From a bacterium (GTDB lineage Bacteria > Margulisbacteria > Marinamargulisbacteria > CANKTL01): a DNA stretch of 48,963 bases. Numbering within the stretch: position 1 is the first letter of the stretch; every line of letters begins with the position of its first letter. Both the position numbers and the translations under genes were made by a program. Below, piece after piece: positions 6,428 to 48,963 of this stretch. The notes under the pieces were generated by a model that was not told the DNA's origin, made no database searches, and was given only the letters and a program-made list of their open reading frames with translations. The stretch spans positions 1 through 48,963 of the forward strand of contig CANKTL010000001.1 of the NCBI GenBank assembly GCA_947486405.1. Reading direction: 5' to 3'.

Positions 6428-6434
6428 AGTCGGT

Positions 6435-11130: not shown

Positions 11131-11137
11131 GGAAATT

Positions 11138-17851: not shown

Positions 17852-17861
17852 GGACAGTTAA

Positions 17862-19934: not shown

Positions 19935-19943
19935 GGACCAGTT

Positions 19944-22197: not shown

Positions 22198-22201
22198 CCT
22201 T

Positions 22202-22582
22202 ATGAGCAAACTTCACTCTTCACACGAACTACCTCCATTAAAACCCTACATCATCACATTTGGTGCGCTGATTGCGATTACGCTATTTAACGTGACAATC
22301 TCACAATTTACCTCTGGTAGTTTGGGCTTGATCCTTACAATGGTACTGGCGAGTGTTAATGCCATATTGGTATTGGCCGTATTTATGGGCTTGTGGTGGG
22401 ACAATCGGTTTCACACGGTGGCCATTGTCACCACGTTTTTATTTCTCTCGCTCTTCTTTATTTTCACCATGTTGGACGTGGCTACCCGAGATGATCTCGA
22501 CCCGCGTGAAGGGCCGGCCTTTGATATCAAATCGCCGGTTCAAAAGGAACACTCATCCGGCCACGGCGGGGAGTCCCACTAA
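22202..22582 (+). CDS. Cytochrome c oxidase subunit IV-family small membrane protein
   Basis: 126 aa with three hydrophobic helices, in the usual position after subunit III. Confidence 0.7.
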   Translation: MSKLHSSHELPPLKPYIITFGALIAITLFNVTISQFTSGSLGLILTMVLASVNAILVLAVFMGLWWDNRFHTVAIVTTFLFLSLFFIFTMLDVATRDDLDPREGPAFDIKSPVQKEHSSGHGGESH

Positions 22583-23106: not shown

Positions 23107-24059
23107 TGCAAGCCGCGCAACCCGCCCTTCAGAAACTGAATCGCTGGCTCAAGCTGACCTTGTTGTCGGTGTTGACGCTGATTGTTATTGGGGGCATAGT
23201 CCGGGCGTCGGGGAGCGGTATGGGTTGCCCTGATTGGCCACGCTGCTTTGGGCAATGGATTCCCCCGGTAAGCGAATCCCAATTGCCACCGGACTACCAA
23301 ATTAAATACTCGGCCCATGGGAATACTGCGCAACCATTCAATGCGGCGCGAACTTGGACAGAATATTTAAATCGCTTGGCGGGCGTGACCGTTGGGTTCT
23401 TGTTTTTGGGGTTAGTTTGGCACGCGTGGCAAGTAAGAACGATCGATCGATCTCAACTCACCCTGGCAGTAGTGGGTACCGCTTTGGTGGGCTTTCAAGG
23501 CTGGCTGGGCGCACGCGTCGTCGCCAGTACGTTGGCGCCAATGGTGGTCACCACGCACATGATGGTGGCCCTGATCATTTTAGCTGTGTTGGTCGTACAG
23601 CGGGTGCGGCTGCGTAGCACCTTGTCCTTGGAAATTCGACCGGTTAATCGACCACCCATGTTCTTGGGATGGTCAATGGGCCTTGGCGTAGGTCTGAGCC
23701 TTGTGATTATGCTGGGAACGCAGGTACGAGAATCCATCGACACCATCACTGACAATCTCTCGATTCCGTTGCCACCCAATTGGACTCAAATCGTGGGGTG
23801 GGGGCTGGATATCCACAAGTGGCTGGCGGTGGCGTTATTTTTTGGGCTGATTTTCTTTTGCCGGCAACTGATCGATCATAACCCCACTAACGACCGCATC
23901 TTGCGCCAAATTAAATGGATGATGGCTTTGTTTATTACCCAATTGGCCACCGGGGCTATTTTTATTCTCTTAAATGTTCCGAGCGTGCTCCAACCGATTC
24001 ATCTCGGCCTCGCCGCGGCCCTATTTGTCCTCTACCTCGAACTCATCCTCACGCCGTAG
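23106..24059 (+). CDS. ctaA: Heme A synthase (COX15/CtaA family)
   Basis: N-terminal GSGMGCPDWPRCFG motif, eight predicted TM helices with conserved His residues (HAW, TTHMMVA, HKW, IHLG). Last gene of the oxidase operon. Confidence 0.85.
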   Translation: MQAAQPALQKLNRWLKLTLLSVLTLIVIGGIVRASGSGMGCPDWPRCFGQWIPPVSESQLPPDYQIKYSAHGNTAQPFNAARTWTEYLNRLAGVTVGFLFLGLVWHAWQVRTIDRSQLTLAVVGTALVGFQGWLGARVVASTLAPMVVTTHMMVALIILAVLVVQRVRLRSTLSLEIRPVNRPPMFLGWSMGLGVGLSLVIMLGTQVRESIDTITDNLSIPLPPNWTQIVGWGLDIHKWLAVALFFGLIFFCRQLIDHNPTNDRILRQIKWMMALFITQLATGAIFILLNVPSVLQPIHLGLAAALFVLYLELILTP

Positions 24060-26707: not shown

Positions 26708-27054
26708 GGCTCGTTTTTAATATGAACCTCGGTGCGGGGCCACAACAGTTTCCAGGCTGAAATTGTGTCTAAGTTCCACAGAGTATTAGACACTTCCCAC
26801 AGCACCACTTTGGTTTGTTTTTTCTTGGCCACTTTCAAAATTTCAGCCACAAACGAAGAGCCCGTGCTGTTGATATATTTGAGCCCGTTAAAATGAATGT
26901 CGTAATGATCCAAGGGCTTGGACATGACTTCGGAAATCTCGGCCAACATCGGTGCATATTCGTCAGACGTTCTTAATCGAAACTCGCCTGAGATGGCCGT
27001 TTCTTTTTCACTAATCGATACTTGGTACACTTTTCCGTTAATTTCCATGCTCAT
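26704..27054 (-). CDS. Small STAS / SiaC(DUF1987)-like regulator (tentatively slr1659-type)
   Basis: 116 aa. The pattern ISGEFRL...YAPMLAEI...HFNGLKYINSTGSSFVAEIL resembles SiaC/DUF1987 and STAS partner-switch proteins. 4-nt overlaps on both sides. Confidence 0.5.
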   Translation of the reverse strand: MSMEINGKVYQVSISEKETAISGEFRLRTSDEYAPMLAEISEVMSKPLDHYDIHFNGLKYINSTGSSFVAEILKVAKKKQTKVVLWEVSNTLWNLDTISAWKLLWPRTEVHIKNEP

Positions 27055-27635
27055 CCCGCCTTTATTTGAAGTTTCAGGGCAACACTGGTGCTGCCGTCTG
27101 AGTTAGGAACCAGGTCTATTTTAAGTTTGCTGCCATAGTCTTTAAGAATCATTAGCATCCCCAATTCTGATTTAGATGATGAGACCATACTGCTTAGAGT
27201 GATCTTTTCTTCAAACAACCGACTGAGCGACTTGGCCTGCAAATTACCAGACAGGCGCTCAAGATAAAATTGAAACGTTTCAGCCTGTTCGTGGGAACAA
27301 GTATTGGTGAGAAACAGTTCAAAATATGACGTGAAGCACTTGAACTCTAAATTAGAATACGTACCAGCCAAGCCATATTTCACCACATTTTCGAGCAATT
27401 CATTGATCACGACCGATGCCGTTGTTTCTAAAGAGACCGAGGCTGGATAGATGCCCTGAATTTTTTGAGCAAAAATATTGGCCAGCTCGCCCACTTTAAA
27501 CCAATTTTCGTCTAGATCTGAAATCGAAAGCTGATCTGAAAAGGAATCAACAAATGAATCCCCAGTTTGCCACTCGGTGGGAGGGAGATCGCAATGGTAG
27601 GGTGCTGAAATCGAACTCATTGTGTCATTAGCCAA
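27051..27635 (-). CDS. GHKL-ATPase-like regulator lacking obvious ATP-lid glycines (tentatively slr1658-type)
   Basis: N-box-like VINELLENVVKYG and a G2-like SELGMLMI, but I could find no DxGxG G1 box. The TTG start at 27635 has GGGG 10 nt upstream; the alternative is ATG at 27620. Confidence 0.5.
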   Translation of the reverse strand: MANDTMSSISAPYHCDLPPTEWQTGDSFVDSFSDQLSISDLDENWFKVGELANIFAQKIQGIYPASVSLETTASVVINELLENVVKYGLAGTYSNLEFKCFTSYFELFLTNTCSHEQAETFQFYLERLSGNLQAKSLSRLFEEKITLSSMVSSSKSELGMLMILKDYGSKLKIDLVPNSDGSTSVALKLQIKAG

Positions 27636-27814: not shown

Positions 27815-28825
27815 ATGAATAAAAAGATTGTAGGGATGGTACAGTTGGGGGCATCAGGGCAACCTGAAAGTGCTGATGAAGTGGCACGTCGTTATTTTGC
27901 TCATATTAAAACGAGAACGGTTCAATTACCGGAGTCTTTGATTGCCGATATTTATGAATATCTGGAAAATTCCCCAGCAGAAGACCCGTTTATTCGAATC
28001 AACGAATCCGTTCGCCTCTGCTACACCCAATTTCAGGCTTGTTTACCGTACACCCTCGCCACTGACGATAAACATTATGCCTTAGTAATGGATAATGTCC
28101 GACACCTGCTGAGTCAGGATCACAATAACCCTCAGTATCGTCCGTTGTTGGCCGCTGCGGCCGGCCACGACTTGGAGCGGTGGTTTGATCACGATGGTAG
28201 CGGCGAATTTGGCACGGGGTATGGGGTGGCTAAATTGAATACGTTAGTTTCAAGGGATCATCCTCAGGCGAAAGAGTTGCAGACCGAATTAAAGCGCTTG
28301 GATGAATCGCTGCGAAAAGTTGAAATTCACCCTTGGGCATCGTTGCGGTTGATGGGTTTTTTGATGGAAAAATGCGGATTGGACGAAGGCTTTCAATTGA
28401 AAGTGAAAATATTAATTCGCTTCCATGACACGCCGCCCGAGGCTATCACACCGGAAAAAATAGAGGCCGAATTTCCAGGGCATGGGCTTGATATCTCTGA
28501 ACTAATGTCTGAAATTAAACTATTGGGCCAAGCAGATGCCATGGTGTTTTTCCAAACCCCCACGATCAAATTGTTTTTAGAAGAGCGTATCGATATAACG
28601 CCACGGCCAGAATTAGTGAGCCGATTGGCTAAGAATTTGAAAAAAATGGGGACTCAGGCTGAGACTGCGTATGAAGCTGGCCTTGCGTCAATTCAGGGCG
28701 AAGAGCCTACCTCGCGACACGACGATTCAGGGATTGATCTTATAGATCCTGAAGATACTCAGGGTAAGGCGTTTGAAATCGGTGCCATGCAAGCGTTACT
28801 GACAGAAGCGTGGAAACAAATATAA
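27815..28825 (+). CDS. Hypothetical 336-aa soluble protein
   Basis: SD AGGGGAG 6 nt upstream of the ATG. Scattered HD-like dipeptides (GHDLERWFDHDG, RFHDTPPE) but no confident family assignment. Confidence 0.7.
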   Translation: MNKKIVGMVQLGASGQPESADEVARRYFAHIKTRTVQLPESLIADIYEYLENSPAEDPFIRINESVRLCYTQFQACLPYTLATDDKHYALVMDNVRHLLSQDHNNPQYRPLLAAAAGHDLERWFDHDGSGEFGTGYGVAKLNTLVSRDHPQAKELQTELKRLDESLRKVEIHPWASLRLMGFLMEKCGLDEGFQLKVKILIRFHDTPPEAITPEKIEAEFPGHGLDISELMSEIKLLGQADAMVFFQTPTIKLFLEERIDITPRPELVSRLAKNLKKMGTQAETAYEAGLASIQGEEPTSRHDDSGIDLIDPEDTQGKAFEIGAMQALLTEAWKQI

Positions 28826-28890: not shown

Positions 28891-29631
28891 TTACTGTAAC
28901 TTAACTTCCAAAATAGCAGATTGGATTTTGCCAATTAGCTGTTTAGAGGTGCTGTTGAAATCGTCAGCTGGGAATGCAGGAAGTCCGCCATCAGCTGAGC
29001 GTTTGGCTGTGCTAAGTGCGAAAAATTCTTTTTCACCCATTTTGCCTTCTTTGTCGCCAATAGTTACTTTCGTTTTGATACCCAATTGATAGGTTTTGCT
29101 TAATCCCATTAAGCCTTCTTCTTTCACATACCCAATAGTGGTGTGAAGAACAACAACGCAGTCTGCACCTGAATCAGAGGTCAATGTTTTCGCAATTGAT
29201 CCTTGGCCCAAATCAGCGCTTGGAAGTGGGTCAAATTTTACAACCGTGATACGTGCTTTAGACAATAGGTCAGGGAATTTCGCATTCAAATTTTCTTTGA
29301 ATCGATCATAGCTTTCTTGAGTAGCGGCTTCATTTTTTTGACGCGCAGCTGCAACACCTTGGGCATTTTCAACGGCTTTGCCAGAGAACAATCCACCCAA
29401 TACGTTAGCTGCTTCGCCGGCACCAATACCGTCTCCGCCCACCGCTGAGCTACCTAATACGTTTCCGCCAGAGTCGAATTGAACCAATCCATCCTCATAT
29501 TCATACGCTACTACAGCGGCTGATTTTGCATTTTTAACTCGGTCCCAAGGATTACATCCGGCAATACCCACCGCAACAAGTGCGAGTAAACCGAAGGTCC
29601 CCATTTTCTTAAGTGCGTTACTAGTCGTCAT
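28891..29631 (-). CDS. Hypothetical lipoprotein
   Basis: Signal peptide with lipobox GIAGC, a Gly-rich segment, and no motif I recognise. Confidence 0.7.
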   Translation of the reverse strand: MTTSNALKKMGTFGLLALVAVGIAGCNPWDRVKNAKSAAVVAYEYEDGLVQFDSGGNVLGSSAVGGDGIGAGEAANVLGGLFSGKAVENAQGVAAARQKNEAATQESYDRFKENLNAKFPDLLSKARITVVKFDPLPSADLGQGSIAKTLTSDSGADCVVVLHTTIGYVKEEGLMGLSKTYQLGIKTKVTIGDKEGKMGEKEFFALSTAKRSADGGLPAFPADDFNSTSKQLIGKIQSAILEVKLQ

Positions 29632-32561: not shown

Positions 32562-33665
32562 TTAGTATTGGGGGTAGGTCGTGTGCCTTAAACAACTGAG
32601 CAGAATAAAAGGTAATGTCCGCTTATAATCGGGACAAGTGAAGATCGCTGCCATGTCGGAACTTTTGATGTGATAATCGGGCGCTTCTTGTGTCTCTTGT
32701 TTAGCGTGATCGATTTGGAATCCGATGTTGCCCGCAAGATTGGGAAAAAGTCCCTTGTCGACATGGCGGAATGCTAGATCGTGATTAGTGCTCCCCATCC
32801 ACATAAAATGACGAATATTATTAATATGCGCGGCACCCCCGTCCGATGATTCTGAAACACTGTTGACCCATCGTTTCACGGCCCCGAATTTGGCGTCATC
32901 ACGCATGAATGCATCTGAACCTCGGTAGTTGTGGGCAATAGTAAGTTGAGGGGGGGTGGAGTCGATACCTTTATCTTGGCCATGCAGGTTCTCGACTGAG
33001 TCAGTGTGGCGCAACTGAGAAATCGTCACGTGAACCGTTACGGTTTTATCCGATTGTGTAATCGGCGGAAGGGGATCACGCTCAGGATCAAGGCCCTCAA
33101 ACCCGATGATGGGATTGTAAGATAATGCGCGTGTCACAGGGGCGGCCTCAGGATACAACCGACCTTGCGCCTGGCCTCTTATCTCCCGCTGAATTGAATT
33201 AGGAAAATGGATATGCATTCGGCCATCACGAAAATGAACTTCGATATGGTCCCGGCCGCATTCGGGTAGGAGGTGCAAAATAGTACCACCGGAAAGTCGA
33301 TCTAGGTGATCTCGGGTAAAGGCCCACAATAAATGCTTGATCATCGACGAAAAATCGCTGCTGCTGACCGCGATAACTGTATGTCCTTGCAGCATCAATT
33401 GAACTATCTCCCAAACTCGCTTTTCTGGAATTTGCTTATAATCGATTGTCTCTGAGTCTACGTTATCGCCTTGGTTCAACGTTAATTGCATCGGATCAAA
33501 GCAAAAAACAGTGCCAGCCGGAGTACGAGTCTCTGCAAATTCATTCATAAATTCTCTCAGAGCCGTTGCGACATGAACCTTGTAGTCCCATTGATGGGAA
33601 CGCTCTACGTCAGTGGGCGTGGGCCAGGTCTTGTCTATGGCGTCCAGTGAAATAAATTTATACAT
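32562..33665 (-). CDS. Hypothetical 367-aa soluble protein
   Basis: Long ORF 32 nt upstream of the ABC exporter on the same strand. SD GGAGGA precedes the ATG. No motif recognised. Confidence 0.65.
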   Translation of the reverse strand: MYKFISLDAIDKTWPTPTDVERSHQWDYKVHVATALREFMNEFAETRTPAGTVFCFDPMQLTLNQGDNVDSETIDYKQIPEKRVWEIVQLMLQGHTVIAVSSSDFSSMIKHLLWAFTRDHLDRLSGGTILHLLPECGRDHIEVHFRDGRMHIHFPNSIQREIRGQAQGRLYPEAAPVTRALSYNPIIGFEGLDPERDPLPPITQSDKTVTVHVTISQLRHTDSVENLHGQDKGIDSTPPQLTIAHNYRGSDAFMRDDAKFGAVKRWVNSVSESSDGGAAHINNIRHFMWMGSTNHDLAFRHVDKGLFPNLAGNIGFQIDHAKQETQEAPDYHIKSSDMAAIFTCPDYKRTLPFILLSCLRHTTYPQY

Positions 33666-37630: not shown

Positions 37631-38209
37631 ATGTCCCACCTCGATCACTATGCCAACCAAACCGAGACATTTCTGGCTGGGATTGATCAGGCTATCCACA
37701 ACTTACAAACTCAGGTGCCCATTCACTGCAAAGAAGGGTGCGGCAAATGCTGCGAAAATCCCAACGTTGAAAGCACCGTGTTGGAGGTAATTCCCTTGGC
37801 ACGGCACCTTGTTACTACGGGCCAGGCAGACGCCATATATGAAGCCGTAACCACGGCCACACGCCCACAATGCGTGCTGTACGCCGCTGATCCAAGTGTC
37901 CCCGGTAACGGACGTTGTACCCAGTATCACCACCGCCCTATGATCTGCCGCTTATTTGGGTTTTCGGTGTCCAAGGACAAAGCAGGAAACGGACGCCTGG
38001 CATCCTGTCCATTGGTGCTAGAGGCCTCGGGCGTTTCACCTGATTCGGTGGTTTTTGACTCCACCGAGGGCTTACCGGTCTATTCGGAATCCTGGATGGC
38101 CCTCACTGGCATTCACCCCGAGTGGGCCACCCAACGCTATCCCATTAATCAGGCGATCCGGCTGGCGATAGAAAAAGTAGCACTAGCGGACCAACTTAAA
38201 ACGTCTTAG
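37631..38209 (+). CDS. YkgJ-family (UPF0153) cysteine-cluster protein
   Basis: CKEGCGKCCENP (a CxxxCxxCC cluster) plus the later CVLY...RCTQYHHRPMICR. It starts 2 nt after the MFS stop. Confidence 0.75.
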   Translation: MSHLDHYANQTETFLAGIDQAIHNLQTQVPIHCKEGCGKCCENPNVESTVLEVIPLARHLVTTGQADAIYEAVTTATRPQCVLYAADPSVPGNGRCTQYHHRPMICRLFGFSVSKDKAGNGRLASCPLVLEASGVSPDSVVFDSTEGLPVYSESWMALTGIHPEWATQRYPINQAIRLAIEKVALADQLKTS

Positions 38210-39008
38210 TGGCACCTATTTTAATTAAATAGGCGCCTTCGCCAGGCACAAATGTCGGATAGATAAACCACTCGCCCTTCAAAACGCGATTCTGATTGCG
38301 ATCCCATACATAATTGCCAATGGCCTTGCCCACAAAATAACCAGCCACCATATCGGATACCCAGTGATTGTGACTAGACAGTAAAATCATGTAAGCAGCA
38401 ACGCCTGTAACATCCCAAAGGGTTTCTTGCTCGGTATATTTACCCACCACCGTAAAAAAAGCCATGTAAGCTGTGGCATGACCCGAGAAAAATGACGTCC
38501 CTGCGCCGCTGGCACTGGTGGAACGATGCCCCCACTGATACGGATCGTCAGTATGATTGGGGCGCAGTCGGCCGGTGATCAATTTGGTCCCTTGGCTAAT
38601 CACCCACGCATCTAAAACCGCTTCGCCGGCACTGTAGGCAAAACGACGAAGCGAGTCATCATCATTCTGTTCGGCATAGCCATAGCTCGCCTTAATGAAT
38701 TCGAATAAGGCATTGTCCAAATTGCCATCGGGCGACCATTCCGAAACTGAATAGGGTTGAAACACGGGTTTGATGGACGCTTCGTAATACGCGGTGGTTG
38801 ATCGATCCACGAGCATGAGTCCGCCGATGGTCGCGACCGCCATTGGAAATTGGGGATTTCGGATCAAACTAGAAGGTCCGACCAGCATCAGCTCGTAAAC
38901 ATCGTTAACAACCCAATAAGACGCCGTTGGTGACGGGGATGCTGCTGCAACGGCAGGTAGACCCCCGAATATACCGATTACCCCGAGAATGACCCCATAT
39001 CGAATCAT
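38196..39008 (-). CDS. PAP2-family lipid phosphatase
   Basis: PAP2 motifs KLITGRLRP, FFSGHAT and SSHNHWVSDMVAG. ATG 39008 forms an ATGA overlap with the GT9 stop and begins a signal/TM segment MIRYGVILGVIG. The track start at 39053 lies inside GT9. Confidence 0.82.
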   Translation of the reverse strand: MIRYGVILGVIGIFGGLPAVAAASPSPTASYWVVNDVYELMLVGPSSLIRNPQFPMAVATIGGLMLVDRSTTAYYEASIKPVFQPYSVSEWSPDGNLDNALFEFIKASYGYAEQNDDDSLRRFAYSAGEAVLDAWVISQGTKLITGRLRPNHTDDPYQWGHRSTSASGAGTSFFSGHATAYMAFFTVVGKYTEQETLWDVTGVAAYMILLSSHNHWVSDMVAGYFVGKAIGNYVWDRNQNRVLKGEWFIYPTFVPGEGAYLIKIGATKTF

Positions 39009-40441
39009 ACGCCAGCAGCGGGGTCCCACAACTGGTGGTAGATGCGGATCCAATTTTCGGCGCTTCGTTTTTGACGCAGCGGATTTTCGTTCAGAACTTG
39101 GGGCATTACATATTGGCGAACCGTTCCCATTACACCTTTAATCATGCTTCCCACCGCTGGATTAATGCGGCCATGAATCACCGTAATATTATATTGCTCG
39201 CAGAAATGAATCAGTTCGATTACCGATCCCCAGCCCTCTCCCCGAATTAAGATGGGGAAGATATGAAGGCCGCCGGATTCCAAGTCAGCTTTTAAGGTGA
39301 CGGCCCGAAAATATTCTTCGGGTGTTTGAACGGCCCACAGCACCCGGATTGAGGCCAATAGGTGCTGCGTTTTGATGGCTTTGAAGGTCCATCGTGAGGG
39401 TGTTTTACTTCTGGCAAGAACGTCAGTTAGTGCAGTTACCACGGTGTCTGGGGTCAGCCACTTCCAACAGAGATTGGGGCTACAATTTTGCTTGGGTGAA
39501 TGCACACACAGAGTATCTTGGCGCAGGACTTTAAATACAGGTGAAAGGGGACCTACCCGCGATGGAAAGTCGGCTTTTCGCGGCAAAAACATCAGCATGG
39601 GGCGTTGCGCATAGCTCGCCATTTGAGACAAACCTGAGGCGTTGCCAAAAAAAACATCGACTTTCGAAATTAATGCAAAAGTGTCAGCGAGAGGGGAGTC
39701 AAAAAAAAGCGATACGTTGGATCCGGCCAGGTCGGCAAAATGAGTCTGATCGTCTAACCCACCAAACAGGGCGACGTGATGGCCTTTTGCGGTCAATTGC
39801 GACACCGTGCCCCGAATGACATCGTGCGGAATCGCGACACCGGAGGCGTCGGTCGAAACATCTATACCCACCACCGAATTCCCTGATTTTCGCAGTGTCG
39901 CCATTTGCTCGTCGGCTGCGTCCATCGCCAGTGGCGGGACAGGTATCTGTAAATGCGGCAATCGGGAAATACTATTGAGTCGATCTAGAATCTTGAGGCT
40001 CATTTCGGCATTATGGCGGGTGATGATATCTCGCCCGCTGCGCACCCCGTGAGTGAAAAAATGAATGGGTAAAAAGGCCGTTGTATCGCCGATCCGTACA
40101 CGAATGCCACATTTTCGAGCCAAAATAGCTAATTTTAAATTAGACCATAATTCAAGGTATAAATCGGCATTTTCAGCCCGCAATTGCACTTCCAGTTCCT
40201 CCTGATTGCGAATCAGTCCCAAATCATTGCGCAGAACGACCAAAACAGACGCCACATCCGGGTGATTGCGAAATAATTCCGCACTTTCTGGTGCGCAAAT
40301 TACGACAATTTGAACATGCTTATAATTTTGTTTGAGCGCGGCCAAAACGGGCAGACTCAATACGGCATCCGAAAGGGTGTTGGCCTGCTGCACCACAACC
40401 TTAAATCGAGAGGCTTTAAAAAATAACGGAATAAGGGCCAT
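39005..40441 (-). CDS. Glycosyltransferase family 9 (heptosyltransferase-like) with ~130-aa C-terminal extension
   Basis: N-terminal FKVVVQQANTLSDAVLSLPVLAALKQNY and PESAELFRNHPDV match GT9 architecture. At 478 aa it exceeds the usual ~330-350 aa. Confidence 0.7.
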   Translation of the reverse strand: MALIPLFFKASRFKVVVQQANTLSDAVLSLPVLAALKQNYKHVQIVVICAPESAELFRNHPDVASVLVVLRNDLGLIRNQEELEVQLRAENADLYLELWSNLKLAILARKCGIRVRIGDTTAFLPIHFFTHGVRSGRDIITRHNAEMSLKILDRLNSISRLPHLQIPVPPLAMDAADEQMATLRKSGNSVVGIDVSTDASGVAIPHDVIRGTVSQLTAKGHHVALFGGLDDQTHFADLAGSNVSLFFDSPLADTFALISKVDVFFGNASGLSQMASYAQRPMLMFLPRKADFPSRVGPLSPVFKVLRQDTLCVHSPKQNCSPNLCWKWLTPDTVVTALTDVLARSKTPSRWTFKAIKTQHLLASIRVLWAVQTPEEYFRAVTLKADLESGGLHIFPILIRGEGWGSVIELIHFCEQYNITVIHGRINPAVGSMIKGVMGTVRQYVMPQVLNENPLRQKRSAENWIRIYHQLWDPAAGV

Positions 40442-40465
40442 ATTTCGCTAGTTGTACCTTACGGG

Positions 40466-42430
40466 TTACTCGTAACGCAATGCCTCTACGGTGTTTAGCT
40501 CGGCCGCCTGTTTGGCCGGCCATAGTCCGAAAACAACGCCAATGGCGATCGAAAATCCAGCGGCGATGCCAATGGCCGATAGCGTTACCGGTGTGCGCCA
40601 TCCAGTCACCGTTCCCACCAGTATTGCAATAAGTTCGCCCAAAATCACGCCCATGAGACCGCCCAATCCGGTGACTACGACCGATTCAATTAAAAATTGA
40701 TTCAAAATGTCGCTGCGGGTGGCGCCTAACGCTTTTCTTAGCCCAATCTCCCGGGTGCGTTCGGTCACCGATACCAACATAATATTCATTATTCCGATGC
40801 CGCCCACAAACAACGATATTCCAGCAACAATTCCCAACAAAATTGCAATCGTATTAACCGTGCCTTCAATGGTTTTTTGGATCTCCGACAGGTCCCGGAT
40901 CCGAATAAAATTTTCGACCTCGTCTGAAATTAAATGGCGCTGGCGTAGAATGTGTTCGATTTCAATTTTGCCCTGTTCCATCTGAGCAGCGTCTTTAATG
41001 TCGGCCTGAATCACATCGATATTCTTTTTGCCCAAGACCCGATGCATCGCTGTTGTGATCGGAATGATGATCACATCGTCGCGATCACGCCCACCCGAGT
41101 CCCCTTTGGGCTCTAAAACGCCAATGACTTGAAAGGGGATGCGGTTGAGCCGGACAGATTGGCCCAAGGGGTTTTGATCTGGGAAGAGGGCGTCTGCTGC
41201 GGTTTTGCCGAGCACGGCAACACGGCCTCGGTTATTGAGCTCAGTTTCGGAAAAGAATCGGCCTGAGCTGGGCGTCCAGTTTTCGGCTTCTCCGTAGCGG
41301 GCACTGGCACCGGTCAATGAGGTTTGGGTATTGTTATTCAAGTGCACGGCTTGAACGCGCCCAGTCACCTGGGGGTTTGCCGATTTTACGATCGGAAGTC
41401 GGGCAATGGCAGCGGCGTCATCAATTGTGAGCTTGCTATCGGCAGCGTCGCCCAAGTTCACGCCACCCCGTTCATCCAGGCCGGGGCGAATCATCAGGCG
41501 GTTAGCTCCCAGTACAGATAAATCAGCCCGAATCGACTGCTTGGCGCCTGTACCGATGGCCAGCATCGTTATCACCGCGCACACCCCGATCATGACCCCC
41601 AGTAGCGACAGAAATGACCGTAGTTTTTTGGCGCGAATGGCTTGAAACGCTTGCCGAACGTAATTGCCAATATTCAGGAAAAACGCCTTACGCTGCGGAT
41701 AAAATGGCGGGATGGATGCCCGTGTGTTCGTCTCGGCGCGCTCGGTCATAAGTCGTTTTTGATCTTCGATAATTTTACCGTCTCGCATGCGAATAATGCG
41801 ATGCGCGTGCTCAGCCACTTCTTGCTCGTGAGTCACCATCACAATGGTCATTCCCTTGGCATTGAGTGCTTCCAGTATGGCCATAATTTCGGCTTCGCTT
41901 TGTGTATCTAAATTGCCGGTGGGTTCGTCGGCAAACAATATCGCCGGTCCGTTGATGAGGGCCCGGGCGATCCCCACGCGTTGGCGCTCACCCCCGGATA
42001 ATTCGTTTGGCACGTGAGAAGCTCTGTGACGAAGCCCCATCAACTCGAGCTGGTGGAGAGCCGGTGCCAGTTCGGGCTTGCCGCTCGGCGAATACATCAT
42101 CGGCAGCTTCACGTTGTCTACCGCCGATACACCCGGTAAAAGGTGATATTGCTGGAAGACAAACCCGGCGACCTGGTTGCGAATTTGGGCCAGTTCCAGC
42201 TCACCCAACTGGGTAATGTCTTGTCCGTTAAATAAATAGCGCCCCAGTTCTGGAATGTCTAAAAATCCCAGGATATGCATCAGCGTAGACTTTCCCGAAC
42301 CTGAGGGGCCCATAATGGCCAAAAATTCGCCTGGGAAAATATCCAGATCGACCCCGGCTAAGGCCTGAAATTCAACCGAGCCGGTTTTATATATTTTTTC
42401 GATACCCTTAAGCGATATGAGGGGCGTCAT
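40466..42430 (-). CDS. macB: MacB-type ABC transporter (N-terminal ATPase fused to FtsX-like permease with large periplasmic domain)
   Basis: Walker A GPSGSGKSTL, signature LSGGERQRVGIARAL, Walker B ILFADEPTGNLD. Then TM1, a ~220-aa periplasmic domain and three C-terminal TM helices. 654 aa. Confidence 0.9.
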   Translation of the reverse strand: MTPLISLKGIEKIYKTGSVEFQALAGVDLDIFPGEFLAIMGPSGSGKSTLMHILGFLDIPELGRYLFNGQDITQLGELELAQIRNQVAGFVFQQYHLLPGVSAVDNVKLPMMYSPSGKPELAPALHQLELMGLRHRASHVPNELSGGERQRVGIARALINGPAILFADEPTGNLDTQSEAEIMAILEALNAKGMTIVMVTHEQEVAEHAHRIIRMRDGKIIEDQKRLMTERAETNTRASIPPFYPQRKAFFLNIGNYVRQAFQAIRAKKLRSFLSLLGVMIGVCAVITMLAIGTGAKQSIRADLSVLGANRLMIRPGLDERGGVNLGDAADSKLTIDDAAAIARLPIVKSANPQVTGRVQAVHLNNNTQTSLTGASARYGEAENWTPSSGRFFSETELNNRGRVAVLGKTAADALFPDQNPLGQSVRLNRIPFQVIGVLEPKGDSGGRDRDDVIIIPITTAMHRVLGKKNIDVIQADIKDAAQMEQGKIEIEHILRQRHLISDEVENFIRIRDLSEIQKTIEGTVNTIAILLGIVAGISLFVGGIGIMNIMLVSVTERTREIGLRKALGATRSDILNQFLIESVVVTGLGGLMGVILGELIAILVGTVTGWRTPVTLSAIGIAAGFSIAIGVVFGLWPAKQAAELNTVEALRYE

Positions 42431-43407
42431 GGGCGACGATTACCGCCCCCTTGAGGCCGAAAATTCATCAATCCCTGCTTTCGCCGTGGGCCGTTTTCGG
42501 CCTTTTGAATAGACACCAAAAACTCATCCCCAGGGCGAACCCGTTCTGATATCACTTCGGTGTATCCGTTGCTGGATAGCCCTGTCTTGATTCGAATCCC
42601 ACGATTGCGCTTGGCCGATTTGTCGCCCGATTTTGGCAGTAAAGTGGCCTGATCCTGGCGGTATTGAATTGCCCGGTCCGGCACCACAACGACGCCTTCA
42701 CGCTCATCTTTAATAATTTTAACCGTCGCCGTCATCCCCGATCGAAAATAATCCGGTACTTGCGATACCTGAATTTCAACATCATACACAGACACGTTGT
42801 TAACGATCGTTGATTCATAGGAAATATGAGTGACACTTCCGCTGGCGGTTTGATCGGCGTAGGCATCCAAACTAACCAATACGGGCATGCCCAGCTTAAT
42901 TTTGGAAATATCGGTTTCATCCACCTGCGCTTTTACAATCAACGCATCTGCAATGACAAACACCACCGAGCTCGCGTTTACCGTTTGACCCGGTTCCACA
43001 TTGCGCACAATGACCTGACCGCTGAGCGGCGAATACAACTGGGTTGGTTTGTACACTGATTCCCAATAGCTGACTTTGCCCCGGCCCTCGCTACGGGCCA
43101 CATCCAATAATGCGGCCCGGTCGGTGGAGCTCATAATTGCAAGCACGCTCCCGTTTTGCACATAATCGCCTTCATTGACCGCTATCTTTTCAATTCGGCC
43201 CCCAATCGGCGGAATAATTTCGACCCGATTTCGGGGCACAACAGTGCCCGGTGCTTCAACCGAATCCAATAGCGTTTTGCGCTCGGCAGTGACCGTTTCA
43301 AATTGAGGTGTTTGATTTTGGGATTGGGCGCGCCAAAACAGGCCTCCACCAACACCCAGTGCCACAATGGCAATCCCAGCAACGATCATCCATTTAGTTG
43401 GTATCAA
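42427..43407 (-). CDS. macA: Periplasmic adaptor (MacA/HlyD-family membrane fusion protein)
   Basis: N-terminal anchor and a lipoyl/beta-barrel pattern (GRIEKIAVNEGDYVQNGSVLAIM ... GQVIVRNVEPGQTV). ATGA overlap with macB. Confidence 0.85.
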   Translation of the reverse strand: MIPTKWMIVAGIAIVALGVGGGLFWRAQSQNQTPQFETVTAERKTLLDSVEAPGTVVPRNRVEIIPPIGGRIEKIAVNEGDYVQNGSVLAIMSSTDRAALLDVARSEGRGKVSYWESVYKPTQLYSPLSGQVIVRNVEPGQTVNASSVVFVIADALIVKAQVDETDISKIKLGMPVLVSLDAYADQTASGSVTHISYESTIVNNVSVYDVEIQVSQVPDYFRSGMTATVKIIKDEREGVVVVPDRAIQYRQDQATLLPKSGDKSAKRNRGIRIKTGLSSNGYTEVISERVRPGDEFLVSIQKAENGPRRKQGLMNFRPQGGGNRRP

Positions 43408-44701
43408 GCGACTCTCCTTTTACATGGCGCCATTCAGATTCGGCCACCCATACGTCTAGCTGTGCCCGCAATACTGATTTTTGAGATTGGACCAGGTTAT
43501 TCTCAATTAGAATCCATTCGTTAAATGATAAACGACCCGATTTGTATTGCAGCCCGGCAATATTGGCCCGCGACACGTTTGCATTCCAAAATTGGGTTTG
43601 AACCACCAGATTTTCAACCGCTGAGCGCCAATTTTCTCGGGCGACTTCCAACGACAAGAGGGCCGTGGTGCGGGCCTGTTCAAGCGCCAGCTCGGCAGAA
43701 GCGACCCGTAATTCAGCCGATTTCTGTGCGATGCCGATCGCCCCACCATCCCAAATTGAATAGTTAATGCCGACTTGGGCAGACAAATTGTCGGATTGGG
43801 CTGAAGTAGGGGAGAATGTCAGCGATTTTGAGGCTGATCCTCCAGCAGACACAGCGGGCAGTAGCTGCAACTGTGCGGCAGTCAAATTGCCTTTGGCGAC
43901 GGCCAATTGGGCAGTGGCTTCGCGAACGGCCGGTAATCGATCAACCAAAATGTAGTGATTTTCACTGGGAACTACCACGGGTACCGAGTCTGCCATAGTG
44001 GCATCATCCGAAAATCCCGATAAATCACCCGAGACCGACTGCGCCAATGTGAGCCGATTGAGTGCCACCGTGCGCTCCGACTGGGTAAATGCGGTTTGGG
44101 CGTCGATCCAATTGGCTTTGGACGTCATTAAAGCGCCTTCGTGCTCGAGCCCGCTGGCGTACCGATACTTGAGCAATTCATACTGGTCAGCACGACGATC
44201 AACAATGGTTTTATTCAGGCGCAGCAAGGCTTGCGAATACCACAATTGGTAAAATTGATTTCGCACATGGGCGTAGTCATTTGCTGCGGCTTGAATTGCA
44301 ACGGCTTCGGACGCGGCAAACCGGGATTCGGCGTTGGCAATACCCACCCCTAATTTTCCCCCATCCCAAAGCACCTGCGAAATCGACAAGGACGCGCCAG
44401 CGCCAGTGGCGGCCGAATCGCTGTTGCTTTTGCTGACGGTGCCGGATACGCCTGCCGATAATTGCGGCGTTAGTCCCGTGTGAGCCTCCTGAACGCCAGC
44501 ACGAGATAATTGAACATTCAGCGTGCTGATGGCCAAGACCCTGCTGTGATCTTGCAGTAAGTTCTCAACCACCTGCCAGGTGAGTGCCGGTTTGCCGGAC
44601 TGCGTCACTGGGGCGGTCGGTACGGCGTTAGCGGCCCATCCACCTGTGCTGTGGGTCAATAAAATTCCGCTAACAATGAGAGGTATCCATTTCATGGGCA
44701 A
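43394..44701 (-). CDS. TolC-family outer membrane efflux protein
   Basis: Signal peptide and two internally repeated coiled-coil/beta halves. 435 aa, with a 14-nt overlap to macA. Confidence 0.85.
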   Translation of the reverse strand: MPMKWIPLIVSGILLTHSTGGWAANAVPTAPVTQSGKPALTWQVVENLLQDHSRVLAISTLNVQLSRAGVQEAHTGLTPQLSAGVSGTVSKSNSDSAATGAGASLSISQVLWDGGKLGVGIANAESRFAASEAVAIQAAANDYAHVRNQFYQLWYSQALLRLNKTIVDRRADQYELLKYRYASGLEHEGALMTSKANWIDAQTAFTQSERTVALNRLTLAQSVSGDLSGFSDDATMADSVPVVVPSENHYILVDRLPAVREATAQLAVAKGNLTAAQLQLLPAVSAGGSASKSLTFSPTSAQSDNLSAQVGINYSIWDGGAIGIAQKSAELRVASAELALEQARTTALLSLEVARENWRSAVENLVVQTQFWNANVSRANIAGLQYKSGRLSFNEWILIENNLVQSQKSVLRAQLDVWVAESEWRHVKGESLDTN

Positions 44702-44779
44702 TAAGTCCTTTTAATGCCATAGAGTAACGGAAACCGCTAAAAGTTTTAAGGAACCTCAATAAAAATTCAGGTTAGCAAA

Positions 44780-45769
44780 TTAATAAAATTCAATTGAAAC
44801 GTAGTGCTGGTTGGTTTGCTGAAAATAATCTGAGGGTTCTAATGCGTAATTGATGGACAAGGAATCCAAAATTAAACTCAAGCCCAGCGATAAGCGGGGA
44901 CGAATTGTATTCACGACCAAATCTTCCCGCCATCCCGTTGAAACCATCAGCGTTTTGGAGCCGATAGGCGCGGTTGCACCAATTGCCTTGGGATAGAAAT
45001 TTCCTCGTTTTCGAACCTGGGCCATGACAGAAATTTGATATTCCGATATCGGATCAGATCGGTATGATCCGATAAACTCTCGCGGCACGCTCTCTTTGCT
45101 GCCATCGGAATAGGTGATGGCGGATCCCATGATGTTTCGGGCCACAACTGAAAACTGGCCATACTCGGTATTAAACAGAACGCCGGGGTCGAAATCCAGT
45201 GAAGTGCCAGACATTGTAGGCGAAAGTGAAGAAGAAAGGGATTTCATAGTAACGCCCAATTGAGTGTCCTTATTGAGGGTCCATCGGCCGCCCAACATAG
45301 TGGTGGTTGAACCCACGCTAAAGGTGCCCGCCGACGCAGCCTCTCCCAACCCATTTAGTTCAGTAATATCGATGTTGGCGATCGACGTTTTAATAATTCC
45401 CGCTGAAATTGCATATTGCGGATCAAAGGAAACTGCCCCAGCCAGATCCCAATAGGTAGCCTCAGTGGCCGTAAACTGGCACCACATCGTTGATGCCGAA
45501 TACCCTTGTTTGTCGCCCATCAGCGTGGCTGAGTTTTCAAAAATGGAGGAAGCTCCCTTAGAAAAACCTTCAATCGACCCGTGGCCGATCATCGTGGCCG
45601 ATGTGCCGATTTCGCCGCCGGCCGCTGGTAGGGAATAGGCCAGTACACGCTCAGGACAGCCTAAAAAGACAAGGGCCAAGAAGGGCGGAATTAAGAAATA
45701 GCGGGAGGCCTGAATCCAAATCTTTTCTTTAAGGTCATTCAGTTGTTTTGCGAATTGCGCTGTCGTCAT
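44780..45769 (-). CDS. Putative outer-membrane beta-barrel, PorV/PorQ-like
   Basis: Hydrophobic signal-like segment FLIPPFLALVFLG. Early motif GASSIFENSATLMG resembles the NPA-type motif near the N-terminus of PorV/PorQ proteins. Alternating beta pattern and a C-terminal aromatic YVSIEFY. ATGA overlap with the upstream giant gene. Confidence 0.45.
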   Translation of the reverse strand: MTTAQFAKQLNDLKEKIWIQASRYFLIPPFLALVFLGCPERVLAYSLPAAGGEIGTSATMIGHGSIEGFSKGASSIFENSATLMGDKQGYSASTMWCQFTATEATYWDLAGAVSFDPQYAISAGIIKTSIANIDITELNGLGEAASAGTFSVGSTTTMLGGRWTLNKDTQLGVTMKSLSSSLSPTMSGTSLDFDPGVLFNTEYGQFSVVARNIMGSAITYSDGSKESVPREFIGSYRSDPISEYQISVMAQVRKRGNFYPKAIGATAPIGSKTLMVSTGWREDLVVNTIRPRLSLGLSLILDSLSINYALEPSDYFQQTNQHYVSIEFY

Positions 45770-48700
45770 GGCAGTACCACCATTTTCCCTTTCCCGATTA
45801 CGTCGCCGTTGGCGATGAGTAAATAAGCGAATACACCTGTAATAGAAGAATCGCCTAAGTCTGCGGTGCGAAGCCCTACTTTATTGTAGCCGATGTGGGC
45901 GCCTTCGCTGCCCGCTGGCATGCTGTTGCGGAACACTTCTTTGCCCGTCCAGGTATAGACCCGAAGTTCCATATCGACGTTTTGGCTCAGATAGTATCCA
46001 ATAAATGTACCGTCACTGCGTTTGAATGGGTTAGGGAAGTTGAGAGGGCGATCGGCGATTAGACCCGCAAAGTTGGCGGAAACTTTTAGTACCCCGGTGG
46101 TATAAAGTTCGCTGGTATCCCATTTGAGACGGCCATCGAGTTCAGGCAAATCCATTGTGGCAAATTGACCACTGATACGATTTGCTCGGAATAAATTGAT
46201 CACGTCGCCGGGACGGGGTTTGTAGTTGGCGGGGAGTGTAACCTTCAAGCCCCCTTGGACCGTTAAATTCCCAGACACTGTTAAAAACGGTTCGTCTGCC
46301 GAAGAAAACGTGACCACTGTTTTACCGGTGGACTGGGTTTTAAAGAATTTGGCCGCCATTGCAGCGGTACGTTCTTTCAGCGGTACCACGGGTGTCACGG
46401 CGTTGATATGAAGGGTACCGTTGGCCATAATTTGGCAATTGTCAGCTACTGTGGTTGAGCCTGGGTTAATTTGCAGGGTACCGCCTCTGCTCACAAGGCT
46501 GAAGTTGATGCGGTCGGCTGCGATGGTGCCCCCCGTCCAATCCAAGGTTAGGTTGCCTTCGCCTTTCATCATTTCGCCCGCTATTAGGGTACCTCGAGTC
46601 ATTTTCAGGGTTGCATTTCCTGATTTTCCAGCCGCAAATAGAATAGATCGGGCCGAAACTTGGGCTCCTTCGTTGGTCAGCTTCCCGGTACCCAATGCGC
46701 CCACCACCAACGACTCACGAATATCCACTTGGGCACCCGTAGAATTGGCAATAAATTCACCGTTACTGCCGGAATCCTCACCCAACATGACACCTTTTAC
46801 GGTCAATTTCCCGGTATCCGTGACTGTCAGTGTTTGCTCGCTCGTTTTTCCAACGTTCCATTCAGTTGCCATGTCAGTGACCAGAGTGCGAATAACCGTG
46901 TTCTCAACCAGTTCGCCATGGGAATACACCATCCCAACAAAAACCGGGATAGAGCAGGTTGCAACGACAGAGTAATTTCCGGATACATCGCGGGCAAAGA
47001 TGCCGAAATGATACGTGCCATTTTGCATACCGTTCAACCGAAGGGTAGTGCCACGATAGTTTTCAGTGACCAATATGCCATCGCTGCGATCATCGATTGC
47101 CCGGCTGGCTTGGCGAACCATCACAGAATGGAAATCTTCATCACTGGGCGACGTCCAACTTAGGTCTATACTTCGACGGGTGCCGGTAGCAATAAATAGG
47201 GTAGGACGTGCTGGGGGAGTAGTATCCCGCCGAATTTGAGGTGCTGGTTGTTGAGGCGCATCAGGCTGCTGCGGTGCCTCTGGTGCTTTTGGTTTTTCAG
47301 GTTCGGCTTTAGGTTCTTCTGGTACAGGCGGTGTGGGGGCTACTGGGCGAACAACTGTGGCCGAAATGGTAGCTGGCTCGCTTAAGTTGCCCACTCGGTC
47401 TTTAGCATACACGGCATAAAAATAAGTGCCGGGTGCCAAGTTGGTGTTGGTTACAGTAGTTTCCTCAGTATCTTGCGAAATAACTGTGCCATCCGCTACC
47501 GAGGTCGGGAAGTGCTCATTGTGCCGAACGACTGTGCTCGTGGCAAAATCGGCAGCGTCGGGTGGGGTCCACGTAAGGGTGATATTGGTTAAAGTTGTGG
47601 TGGCGTTCAAATTAGATACACGCCCGGGTCCCGTGGTATCTACCCTAGCCGACACGGTGGTGGCTGCCGAAAAATTACCAATGGCGTCCCGTGTGAATAT
47701 CGAATAGAAATAAGTACGATCCTCTAAATTGGGATCTGCTTGAATGACGCCATTCAACTCTCGCACCACGAGAGCTTCGTCTTCGATCGAAGTAGGGAAG
47801 TGATCGATACTTTTTCTAATCATCACGGATTGGAAGTCCCCACCCGGATTGGTCCAGGTTAAGCTTACATTTTTGCCGGTGGCAATCGCTCTGAATTCAG
47901 ATGCCCGAGCCGGTGGCGTAGTATCTACAGTGACTGATGTAGTCGCCGCAGTTGAGAAGTTGCCATCAGCATCGCGGGTGAAGATTGAGTAAAAATATGT
48001 TTCATCAGGTAAATCGTTGTCATTGTGCACTTCAGCAACGAGGCCTTCTGCTACCAATTCTGGGGCGTCGGTCGCAAGTGGGAATCTTTCTGTGCTTTTG
48101 CGAATCATCGCCGAATGGAAATCTACCCCGGGCTTAAGCCAGGTCAGACGGACATTTTTGCCGGTTGCCGTCGCCCTAAACTCAGTGGCTCGTGCTGGGG
48201 CAGTGGTATCGATGGTGACCGAAGCCGTTGCTTCATCTGCGAAATTGCCTGTCGCATCTCTGGTGAAAATGGAATAGAAATAAGTACCATCTTCTAAATT
48301 GTCGTCAGGATGATTGGCGGCGTTCAGCCCTAGTACCAACAGATCTTCATCTTCAATTGAAGTGGGGAAGTGATCGTTACTTTTTCGGATCATGACGGAC
48401 TGAAAATCGTCAATGGGATTGTTCCAGCTCAAAGTCACGTTGCGGACAGCGGCTGTGGCCCTAGGATTAGTTGCCTTAGCCGGTGCCACGGTATCAATAA
48501 GGACTGACGTTGTGGATGCCAAGGAGAAGTTCCCAATGGCATCCCGGGCAAACACTGAATAGAAATAAGTGCCATCAGCTAAGTTGGTATCATTCCGAGG
48601 CCCAGCGTTTAATCCCTGAACCAGCAATGCTTCATCATCAATAGCAGTGGGGAAATGATCAGTACTTTTGCGAATCATGACCGATTGGAAATCACCGCCA

Positions 48701-48963
48701 GGGTTAGTCCAATTCAAAACCACATTTCTGCCGGTGGCCGTTGCGGTTAAGCCCGTTACCTGAGCTGGAGCAGTGGTGTCCACCACCACCGAAACAGTAG
48801 TTGGAGCCGAGAAGTTGCCAATGGCATCCCGGGCAAACACTGAATAGAAGTAGGTGCCATCGGCTAAGTTATTATCATCACGAGTCCGAGCGTTTAATCC
48901 CTGAACCAGCAAAGCTTCATCATCAATAGCAGTAGGGAAATGATCAGTACTTTTGCGAATCAT
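45766..48963 (-). CDS. Giant surface protein (3' 1065 codons; 5' end outside window): tandem FN3-like array, Pro-rich linker, beta-helix-like region, T9SS/FlgD-Ig-like C-terminal domain
   Basis: Seven FN3-like units, the first five in strict 95-96 aa register, with consensus MIRKSxDHFP...DGTYFYSIFxRDxxGNFS...VDTTxPA...NVxLTWxNPxxDF (46933-48963). One Pro/Glu/Lys/Gln linker (47236-47349). A Gly/Thr-rich region with GxLT/GTL-type repeats (46042-46932). The last 91 aa, NFPNPF...ELRVYTWTGKEV...GVFAYLLIA...MVVLP (45769-46041), match the Por_Secre_tail/FlgD_ig pattern. Confidence 0.85.
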   Translation of the reverse strand: MIRKSTDHFPTAIDDEALLVQGLNARTRDDNNLADGTYFYSVFARDAIGNFSAPTTVSVVVDTTAPAQVTGLTATATGRNVVLNWTNPGGDFQSVMIRKSTDHFPTAIDDEALLVQGLNAGPRNDTNLADGTYFYSVFARDAIGNFSLASTTSVLIDTVAPAKATNPRATAAVRNVTLSWNNPIDDFQSVMIRKSNDHFPTSIEDEDLLVLGLNAANHPDDNLEDGTYFYSIFTRDATGNFADEATASVTIDTTAPARATEFRATATGKNVRLTWLKPGVDFHSAMIRKSTERFPLATDAPELVAEGLVAEVHNDNDLPDETYFYSIFTRDADGNFSTAATTSVTVDTTPPARASEFRAIATGKNVSLTWTNPGGDFQSVMIRKSIDHFPTSIEDEALVVRELNGVIQADPNLEDRTYFYSIFTRDAIGNFSAATTVSARVDTTGPGRVSNLNATTTLTNITLTWTPPDAADFATSTVVRHNEHFPTSVADGTVISQDTEETTVTNTNLAPGTYFYAVYAKDRVGNLSEPATISATVVRPVAPTPPVPEEPKAEPEKPKAPEAPQQPDAPQQPAPQIRRDTTPPARPTLFIATGTRRSIDLSWTSPSDEDFHSVMVRQASRAIDDRSDGILVTENYRGTTLRLNGMQNGTYHFGIFARDVSGNYSVVATCSIPVFVGMVYSHGELVENTVIRTLVTDMATEWNVGKTSEQTLTVTDTGKLTVKGVMLGEDSGSNGEFIANSTGAQVDIRESLVVGALGTGKLTNEGAQVSARSILFAAGKSGNATLKMTRGTLIAGEMMKGEGNLTLDWTGGTIAADRINFSLVSRGGTLQINPGSTTVADNCQIMANGTLHINAVTPVVPLKERTAAMAAKFFKTQSTGKTVVTFSSADEPFLTVSGNLTVQGGLKVTLPANYKPRPGDVINLFRANRISGQFATMDLPELDGRLKWDTSELYTTGVLKVSANFAGLIADRPLNFPNPFKRSDGTFIGYYLSQNVDMELRVYTWTGKEVFRNSMPAGSEGAHIGYNKVGLRTADLGDSSITGVFAYLLIANGDVIGKGKMVVLP
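47536..48963 (-). repeat. In-frame tandem DNA repeat, five units of 285-288 bp (boundaries 48678, 48393, 48108, 47823)
   Basis: Each unit begins with the codons for MIRKS; CAT was read at 48961, 48676, 48391, 48106 and 47821. The two outermost units share a ~150-bp block that is near-identical by eye. The array runs off the window edge. Confidence 0.9.

Follow-up and report, generated by a model that had tools for sequence, protein, structure and literature searches.

A 48,963-nt stretch of a Margulisbacteria genome (GCA_947486405.1, contig CANKTL010000001.1; herein referred to as the window) carries on its minus strand a 10.8-kb run of seven genes that encode, in order, a large repetitive protein with a C-terminal domain (CTD) akin to type IX secretion system (T9SS) sorting domains (the cargo), an outer membrane (OM) beta-barrel that resembles PorV and PorQ (the barrel), the three components of a MacAB-TolC-type efflux pump, a GT9-like glycosyltransferase and a PAP2-family phosphatase. 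A CTD protein together with a PorV-like barrel is a conserved, recurrent two-gene cassette found well beyond this genome, and this cassette is a variant of the known T9SS cargo/shuttle pairing that lies outside the known taxonomic range of that pairing. We consider it likely that the whole stretch, in its Margulisbacteria host, combines such a cargo/receptor cassette, whose cargo is bound by the barrel, with an ordinary, self-sufficient pump and a GT9-like/PAP2 pair. Positions refer to the window unless they are prefixed with the label of another locus (such as L001, a longer contig copy of the same DNA).

A CTD protein gene and a PorV-like barrel gene as a pair

Pairing was surveyed from the side of the CTD and from that of the barrel. 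Scanning GTDB species genomes and JGI metagenomes with a degenerate pattern yielded 36 distinct close CTD proteins; of the 32 CTD genes for which at least 900 nt of the sequence after them is available, 14 have a barrel gene as their immediate same-strand downstream neighbour, and two further CTD genes are followed by partial barrels at contig ends. Starting from the barrel, a verified CTD protein is encoded immediately upstream in six of nine contexts (including those of barrels only ~30% identical to that of the window), the remaining contexts being two with small upstream open reading frames (ORFs) and one solitary barrel (L009). The adjacency that a first-pass annotation of the window had described as a cargo plus shuttle-barrel pair therefore recurs from both directions. 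The nearest relatives of the CTD and of the barrel are recorded as Candidatus Margulisiibacteriota or Marinamargulisbacteria, including the single-cell genome AM-311-D05, and some of the metagenome-assembled genomes (MAGs) or single-amplified genomes (SAGs) encode several CTD proteins each (L014, L015, L017, L019). In one Margulisiibacteriota MAG (L006) AspRS and HisRS stand on either side of the pair, and in L062 a 2,207-aa protein with fibronectin type III (FN3) modules, a signal peptide and a CTD is followed by the barrel and then by a dTDP-sugar isomerase and MutS. Among 118 neighbouring ORFs from 23 loci, no family occurs in more than four loci, the recurrent families are housekeeping ones (UvrB, HisRS, dephospho-CoA kinase), and the 25 most frequent families include no efflux or T9SS family.

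The cargo ORF occupies positions 45766-48963 (minus strand) and runs off the end of the window, which is itself a shortened copy of the 52,641-nt contig ENA ERZ27280196 k141_2947348 (L001, fetched in part). On L001 the cargo gene spans 2137-6876 and is called at 1,579 aa, and in a second assembly (GCA_965002935.1, L002) it encodes 1,484 aa; the two differ by exactly one 95-aa repeat unit, reflecting either copy-number variation or assembly collapse. The end of the window falls within a 285-bp tandem repeat (window 48524-48963, L001 3604-4297) whose copies are 93% identical and encode FN3-like modules, and this repeat is probably the cause of the break. The window holds only part of what had been annotated as a giant protein, including ~7 FN3-like modules of ~95 aa (46897-48963, minus strand); the FN3 array itself is borne out by matches to Pfam Big_13, fn3 and DUF4998, and the modules carry the motif 'VDTTAP...NWTNP...DGTYFYSIFARD..GNFS'. 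The order on L001 is a signal-peptide ORF, NHL repeats (a propeller), ~10 FN3-like modules, a proline-rich linker, a putative beta-helix and the CTD. The stretch between the FN3 array and the CTD (46051-46896, minus strand), which is kept in a 64% relative (L003) and scores 21.1 bits against TIGR04393 (T5SS/PEP-CTERM-associated repeat; cutoff 23), is probably the beta-helix, and the C-terminal ~380 aa of the cargo are well conserved with L003.

The cargo ends in a tail of 94 aa ('RPLNFPNPF...GKGKMVVLP'; 45766-46050 with the stop codon, minus strand) of T9SS type A-like or FlgD-Ig-like character. The last 91 aa had been read as a Por_Secre_tail/FlgD-Ig domain, a reading that holds for the family of tails, with this copy by itself scoring below the cutoff: the 102-aa tail alone scores 16.5 bits against TIGR04183 (E 0.006, cutoff 23) and has no match in Pfam, and the 25.8 bits reached by the whole cargo fragment are summed over other regions as well, with no single stretch passing the cutoff. 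At the level of the family, 23 of 24 homologous tails match TIGR04183 at E<=0.01 (best E 1.4e-11), 15 of the 24 match the C-terminus of PorU and four that of PorZ. When a profile of the CTD is compared with the PDB, the best match is the PorU CTD 6za2 (E 0.008), followed by the T9SS CTD 8glj_D (E 0.047), and FlgD is also matched. Moreover, the CTD ends zero to three residues before the stop codon in all 36 of the distinct related proteins. Weak matches of the cargo to CHU_C fall within the FN3 repeats, outside the tail. At the family level, the assignment of the tail to predicted sorting domains of T9SS type A-like rather than type B character is solid.

The barrel gene (44780-45769, minus strand) shares the four bases ATGA with the stop of the cargo gene (45766-45769), as had been annotated and as we read directly on the sequence. 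Its product scores 40.8 bits (E 1.9e-10) against the PorV/PorQ model NF033709, under the cutoff of 90, lies far under the cutoffs of the PorV and PorQ equivalog models and fails both PorP/SprF models (TIGR03519, 18.9 bits, cutoff 90.55; PF11751, 17.3 bits, cutoff 22.3). A word-indexed protein search returned one relative of the barrel (64% identity), and HMMER, run exhaustively against 1.84 billion representatives, returned 304, nearly all at 25-32% identity; the single barrel protein searched against genome contigs gave no match. Within the barrel family, 71 of 82 members match NF033709, with a best E of 1.4e-19.

An AF2 model of the barrel built on an 82-sequence alignment reached a pLDDT of 90.9 (an earlier two-sequence alignment had given 29.7) and has 14 long strands. 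The best Foldseek matches in the PDB are the PorV chains 8gl6_F (E 1.2e-9, query-normalised TM 0.65) and 6h3i_F, both from Flavobacterium johnsoniae SprA-PorV complexes and ~10% identical to the barrel of the window, followed by FadL and TodX, which fit less well by rmsd and TM. A profile of the barrel found no PDB sequence at E<=1, so that the link to PorV runs only via the fold and NCBIfam. The model points to a 14-strand fold of the PorV/FadL type, closest to PorV, and the proposal that the gene after the giant protein encodes a PorV/PorQ-type barrel, for which structure prediction had been suggested as a check, is upheld by the predicted fold and by the sub-cutoff match to NF033709. A FadL-type channel for hydrophobic substrates was judged less likely, since NCBIfam matches are limited to the T9SS PorV/PorQ/PorP families and PorV gives an rmsd of 5.5 against ~10 Å for FadL.

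We hypothesize that the cargo is exported via Sec as a surface protein and that the barrel, translationally coupled to it by the ATGA overlap, would most likely bind the CTD of its own cargo at the OM, by analogy with PorV, PorQ and SprF, and would then hold or deliver the FN3-array protein at the cell surface. In PorU and PorZ the CTD is kept and remains seated on PorV and PorQ, and the resemblance of the tails to the C-termini of PorU and PorZ would fit an anchoring role, although it does not prove one.

The wider survey also turned up variations on the CTD and barrel genes. In four metagenomic loci (L018 10258-12300, L050 333-2285, L052 10195-12357 and L055 374-2299), the barrels encoded after CTD genes are 640-720 aa long and their C-terminal region matches SLH-type domains, through similarity to the SLH portion of a NEAT/LRR protein as well as to the N-terminus of a cyanobacterial somB porin; to our knowledge, no PorV-like barrel with a cell-wall tether has been described. 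Two or three CTD genes stand in tandem with no adjacent barrel in L019 (102-10411), L048 (6677-19130) and L043 (9021-10291), one of which is a Margulisiibacteriota single-cell genome, and this arrangement hints at a receptor or machinery that these proteins share and that is encoded elsewhere. Poribacteria (L021-L034) have proteins of 1,900-3,000 aa that match this CTD more weakly. In one Poribacteria MAG (L029 2189-11389), a PorV-family barrel (NF033709, 86.9 bits) starts 4 nt after the stop of the CTD-protein gene, and the other Poribacteria loci have no barrel match with the Margulis-derived profile.

An in-frame stop codon in the cargo gene

Just past the end of the window, an ORF (L001 1843-2137) encodes a clear signal peptide (MKKFFVLLMVVWGLVLGTSSTALA, then TIQF...) in the reading frame of the cargo gene as called, with the first NHL repeat next in line. 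One in-frame TAG, at L001 1984-1986, stands between this signal peptide and the remainder of the gene. The identical TAG is present in L002, which differs by two nearby single-nucleotide polymorphisms and one repeat unit. Reassignment of TAG as an explanation for the in-frame stop was rejected, because TAG terminates six of the 41 ORFs of the window, including asd and coxA. The counterpart cargo in L062 is intact and has both a signal peptide and a CTD.

We give some credence, clearly short of even, to the possibility that in this genome the cassette is decaying and the cargo is a pseudogene whose signal peptide is cut off by the nonsense codon. The position of the TAG, after the signal peptide and ahead of the first NHL repeat, its presence in a second assembly and its ordinary use as a stop speak for decay; however, no further stop interrupts the remaining frame of 1,579 codons, the barrel is intact and, through the overlap, translationally coupled to the cargo, and the conservation of the C-terminal ~380 aa with L003 likewise speaks against decay. 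Both assemblies may also stem from related samples, and read-through or a consensus error is possible. The cargo may be a recent pseudogene, or the TAG may be a population variant.

The pump, glycosyltransferase and phosphatase genes beside the cassette

Downstream of the barrel lie a TolC-family outer membrane efflux protein (OEP; 43394-44701), a MacA-like periplasmic adaptor of the membrane fusion protein (MFP) family (42427-43407) and a MacB-type fused ABC transporter (40466-42430), all on the minus strand, and the original TolC, MacA and MacB calls hold. The OEP matches PF02321 (E 3e-39) and TIGR01844 (83.6 bits), and the MFP passes TIGR01730 (98.5 bits, cutoff 94.9) and matches HlyD_D23 and HlyD_3. 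MacB combines a nucleotide-binding domain, a periplasmic core domain and an FtsX permease (PF00005, ABC_tran; PF12704, MacB_PCD; PF02687, FtsX), and its 519 bits against NF007826 (E 1.5e-155) lie below the equivalog cutoff of 966. The three genes encode, by the architecture of their predicted products, a MacAB-TolC-type tripartite efflux pump whose MacB is not an equivalog of Escherichia coli MacB. The likeness to E. coli MacAB-TolC extends to the three components and to the architecture of MacB, and the operon order with overlapping genes recurs in two other loci (L060, L061); it differs in that MacB scores below the equivalog cutoff and that the operon of the window encodes its own OM component. 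MacB homologues number more than 5,000 at E<=1e-50 (~50-55% identity, many phyla). The nearest of them on long contigs (55% identity; L060 and L061) belong to stand-alone OEP-MFP-MacB operons with the same internal layout, preceded by unrelated genes and followed by a patatin gene, and these two operons have no barrel, CTD, GT9 or PAP2 beside them. We would regard the OEP-MFP-MacB set as a second, self-sufficient unit, and we found no evidence linking it to the neighbouring cargo.

The third unit would be the GT9-like and PAP2 pair, which probably acts on an envelope glycolipid. The GT9-like glycosyltransferase (39005-40441, minus strand) just passes PF01075 (23.7 bits, cutoff 22), fails TIGR02195 (35 bits, cutoff 134.6) and every other heptosyltransferase equivalog model, and bears a C-terminal extension of ~140 aa with no family match; a word-indexed search of 5.8 billion proteins found one relative (62% identity). 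The PAP2-family phosphatase (38196-39008, ORF to 39053, minus strand; 270 aa as called on L001) passes PF01569 (38.7 bits, cutoff 27.2) and has no NCBIfam match. Of the two enzyme calls made earlier, that of PAP2 is well founded, whereas that of GT9 is marginal and does not extend to a heptosyltransferase equivalog. The PAP2 gene is convergent with a plus-strand gene for a CxxCxxCC protein.

The junctions between these genes are as first annotated: ATGA is shared by MFP and MacB (42427-42430) and by GT9 and PAP2 (39005-39008), both read directly on the sequence, OEP and MFP overlap by 14 nt, with TTG as the start codon of the MFP, and the gaps measure 78 nt between barrel and OEP and 24 nt between MacB and GT9 (40442-40465). 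The 78-nt spacer (44702-44779, minus strand) is AT-rich and becomes 84 nt if the OEP starts at the ATG at 44695. A scan for promoters and terminators found nothing in either gap; its counts were no higher than in shuffled sequence, so that the scan is uninformative and neither supports nor excludes a boundary at 44702-44779. We nevertheless consider this spacer the likely boundary between two units. The count of eight consecutive minus-strand genes was one too many for the window, which has seven, an eighth gene on the same strand appearing only past its end on L001. Upstream of the cargo on L001 (161-1759) lies a same-strand gene of 532 aa with no Pfam or NCBIfam match, which is present in both assemblies (L001 and L002) and missing from other cargo-barrel loci.

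Synteny was examined from three independent entry points: the barrel, the CTD and the pump. Of 16 cargo-barrel pairs, just two have OEP-MFP-MacB beside them, that of the window and that of a relative at 62-64% identity (L003), and the 14 other pairs have no OEP, MFP, GT9 or PAP2 homologue nearby. The association of the pump and the putative lipopolysaccharide (LPS) enzymes with the pair is, in essence, limited to this genome, whereas the cargo-barrel association is not, and the combination of giant CTD protein, barrel, TolC/MacA/MacB, GT9 and PAP2 was not seen in independent lineages. The occurrence of the three units together only in this lineage indicates adjacency, not shared function. In L058, which carries the single GT9 relative and comes from the same sample as L003, MacB-GT9-PAP2 runs on into the convergent CxxCxxCC gene, as in the window; since this relative also keeps an unrelated, oppositely oriented gene, the shared order reflects general collinearity and is not an argument for a functional link.

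Some observations weigh against the reading of the stretch as three separate units built around a bound cargo. The order cargo-barrel-pump-GT9-PAP2 is kept in the one available relative, and the lack of terminator- or promoter-like sites in the two gaps makes co-transcription of all seven genes possible. Roughly half of the related CTD genes lack a barrel beside them and one barrel is solitary, so that pairing is frequent and not obligatory; binding of the CTD by the barrel is proposed on homology and gene linkage; and the in-frame TAG, being an ordinary stop here, means that the cargo-barrel cassette may be inactive in this population. The first two of these points, along with the tight same-strand packing (three ATGA overlaps and only the two short gaps) and the attachment of Bacteroidota type A CTD cargo to anionic LPS (PMC9143113), could be taken to mean that all seven genes form one module, in which MacAB-TolC exports the cargo or helps to release it, the barrel acts as its shuttle, and the cargo is anchored to a modified LPS made by GT9 and PAP2. 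We regard such a module as highly improbable, given that the association is confined to one lineage among the 16 pairs, that the relative is equally collinear for the unrelated convergent gene, that the closest pump homologues form autonomous operons and that GT9 and PAP2 homologues stand beside no other pair. A folded FN3 array of ~1,600 aa is, in addition, not a plausible substrate for MacB/TolC. The comparative data show gene adjacency, and the claim of pump-driven adhesin export and LPS anchoring by a self-contained module, which the first-pass annotation had put forward, is therefore to be dropped in favour of its own fallback, the plain adjacency of two operons, which synteny from the barrel, CTD and pump sides favours.

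Elsewhere in the window (10474-24059), an alternative complex III cluster (multihaem cytochrome, ActB-like Mo/FeS subunit, NrfD, ActD and cytochrome c) is followed by SCO1, CoxB, CoxA, CoxC and CtaA of a type A cytochrome oxidase, and matches the alternative complex III and type A oxidase reported for Marinamargulisbacteria (PMC6349859). A small protein (27051-27635, minus strand) matches the slr1658 superfamily of regulators; this family takes its name from a cyanobacterial gene, in keeping with a host related to Cyanobacteria. Five ORFs of 246-700 aa have no Pfam or NCBIfam match (8296-10398, 16664-17851, 27815-28825, 28891-29631 and 32562-33665). An AAA_14/DUF4143 ATPase gene lies ~10-40 kb from the cassette in three unrelated contexts (window 6435-7556, L006 4794-5978 and L008 9657-10877); this proximity is probably a coincidence, the family being widespread.

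Possible type IX-like sorting outside its described range

The closest described counterpart of the cassette is found in F. johnsoniae, where substrates with type B CTDs are genetically paired with cognate PorP/SprF shuttles, such as SprB with SprF (PMC12618676, PMC9143113). As in SprB-SprF, a large repetitive CTD surface protein directly adjoins its own 14-strand barrel of the FadL family, the pairing is frequent without being universal (orphan cargo and orphan barrels exist), and the barrel of the window retains weak matches to the PorP/SprF models. However, the tail in the window resembles type A (TIGR04183) instead of type B (TIGR04131/CHU_C), the barrel has more in common with PorV/PorQ than with PorP/SprF, and the host belongs to Margulisbacteria and not to Bacteroidota. 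Type A CTDs of Bacteroidota, moreover, are all reported to use a single general PorV (PMC12618676). A second comparison, with the PorV shuttle and the PorU-PorV and PorZ-PorQ complexes (6h3i, 8gl6; PMC10994853, PMC10947112), shows PorV as the best structural match of the barrel, matches of the barrel family to the PorV/PorQ model and a CTD profile for which the PorU CTD is the nearest match, with the C-terminus of PorZ matched as well; the barrel differs in that it stays well under the model cutoff, at ~10% identity to PorV and with no PDB sequence match at E<=1, and in that its gene is tied to a single cargo gene next to it. No SprA, PorU or PorZ homologue was identified in the 49-kb window or among the recurrent neighbour families.

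The taxonomic setting of the pair is unusual for such components. Published descriptions restrict the T9SS to the FCB superphylum or to Bacteroidota (PMC11205867, PMC12398890), and NCBI places Margulisbacteria in Bacillati, within the Cyanobacteriota/Melainabacteria group. In the literature examined, we found no report that links Margulisbacteria with a T9SS. One explanation, to which we assign a chance that is substantial and somewhat below even, is that the pair belongs to an unreported Margulisbacteria T9SS, whose SprA-like translocon, PorKLMN-like motor/ring and PorU-like sortase would be encoded elsewhere, with the barrel as a specialised shuttle. These genomes have the two hallmark families, that of the TIGR04183-like CTD and that of the PorV/PorQ-like barrel, in multiple copies, the barrel fold is closest to that of PorV from the SprA translocon complex, and cognate cargo/shuttle gene pairs are known from the T9SS (PMC12618676). 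Set against this are the restricted range described for the system, the absence, from the literature examined, of any paper on a T9SS in Margulisbacteria and the lack of any core gene (SprA/Sov, PorK/L/M/N or PorU) in the 49-kb window or among the 25 most frequent neighbour families.

The pair might instead be an autonomous system of the two-partner kind that works without a T9SS core, the barrel, perhaps together with BAM, recognising the CTD and exposing or anchoring its cognate protein. The cassette is a tight two-gene unit that recurs among differing sets of housekeeping genes and is joined by no third gene that is conserved, its lineage lies outside the known T9SS range, and its CTDs are similar to those that PorU and PorZ retain; the C-terminal SLH domains carried by some of the barrels suggest, in addition, a fixed anchor rather than a mobile shuttle. 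However, by analogy with PorV and FadL the lumen of a 14-strand barrel would be too narrow for folded cargo, and the many CTD proteins that have no adjacent barrel argue for shared machinery encoded elsewhere. On these grounds we think an autonomous pair unlikely. Two-partner secretion proper (type Vb, TpsA/TpsB) likewise encodes a large repetitive exoprotein and a dedicated OM barrel in adjacent genes; the presumed recognition domain of the cargo is, in contrast, C-terminal and putatively Ig-like and not an N-terminal TPS domain, and the barrel has 14 strands, no POTRA domain and no kinship of sequence or fold with TpsB, so that the parallel is a functional analogy only.

The recurrent pairing of a type IX-style tail with a PorV-like barrel is thus found in a sibling phylum of Cyanobacteria for which no T9SS has been reported. 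Should a T9SS core be present in these organisms, the range of the system would reach well outside the FCB group. A more speculative outcome, to which we assign a low probability, is that Margulisbacteria lack the SprA/PorKLMN core and use stand-alone cassettes of a CTD protein and a PorV-like barrel, some of them SLH-tethered, to expose or anchor large adhesins, and that these cassettes could resemble a precursor of the T9SS shuttle and attachment step. If there is no core, the pair would be a candidate for a minimal sorting and anchoring device, and would offer a handle on the origin of the recognition between CTD and PorV.

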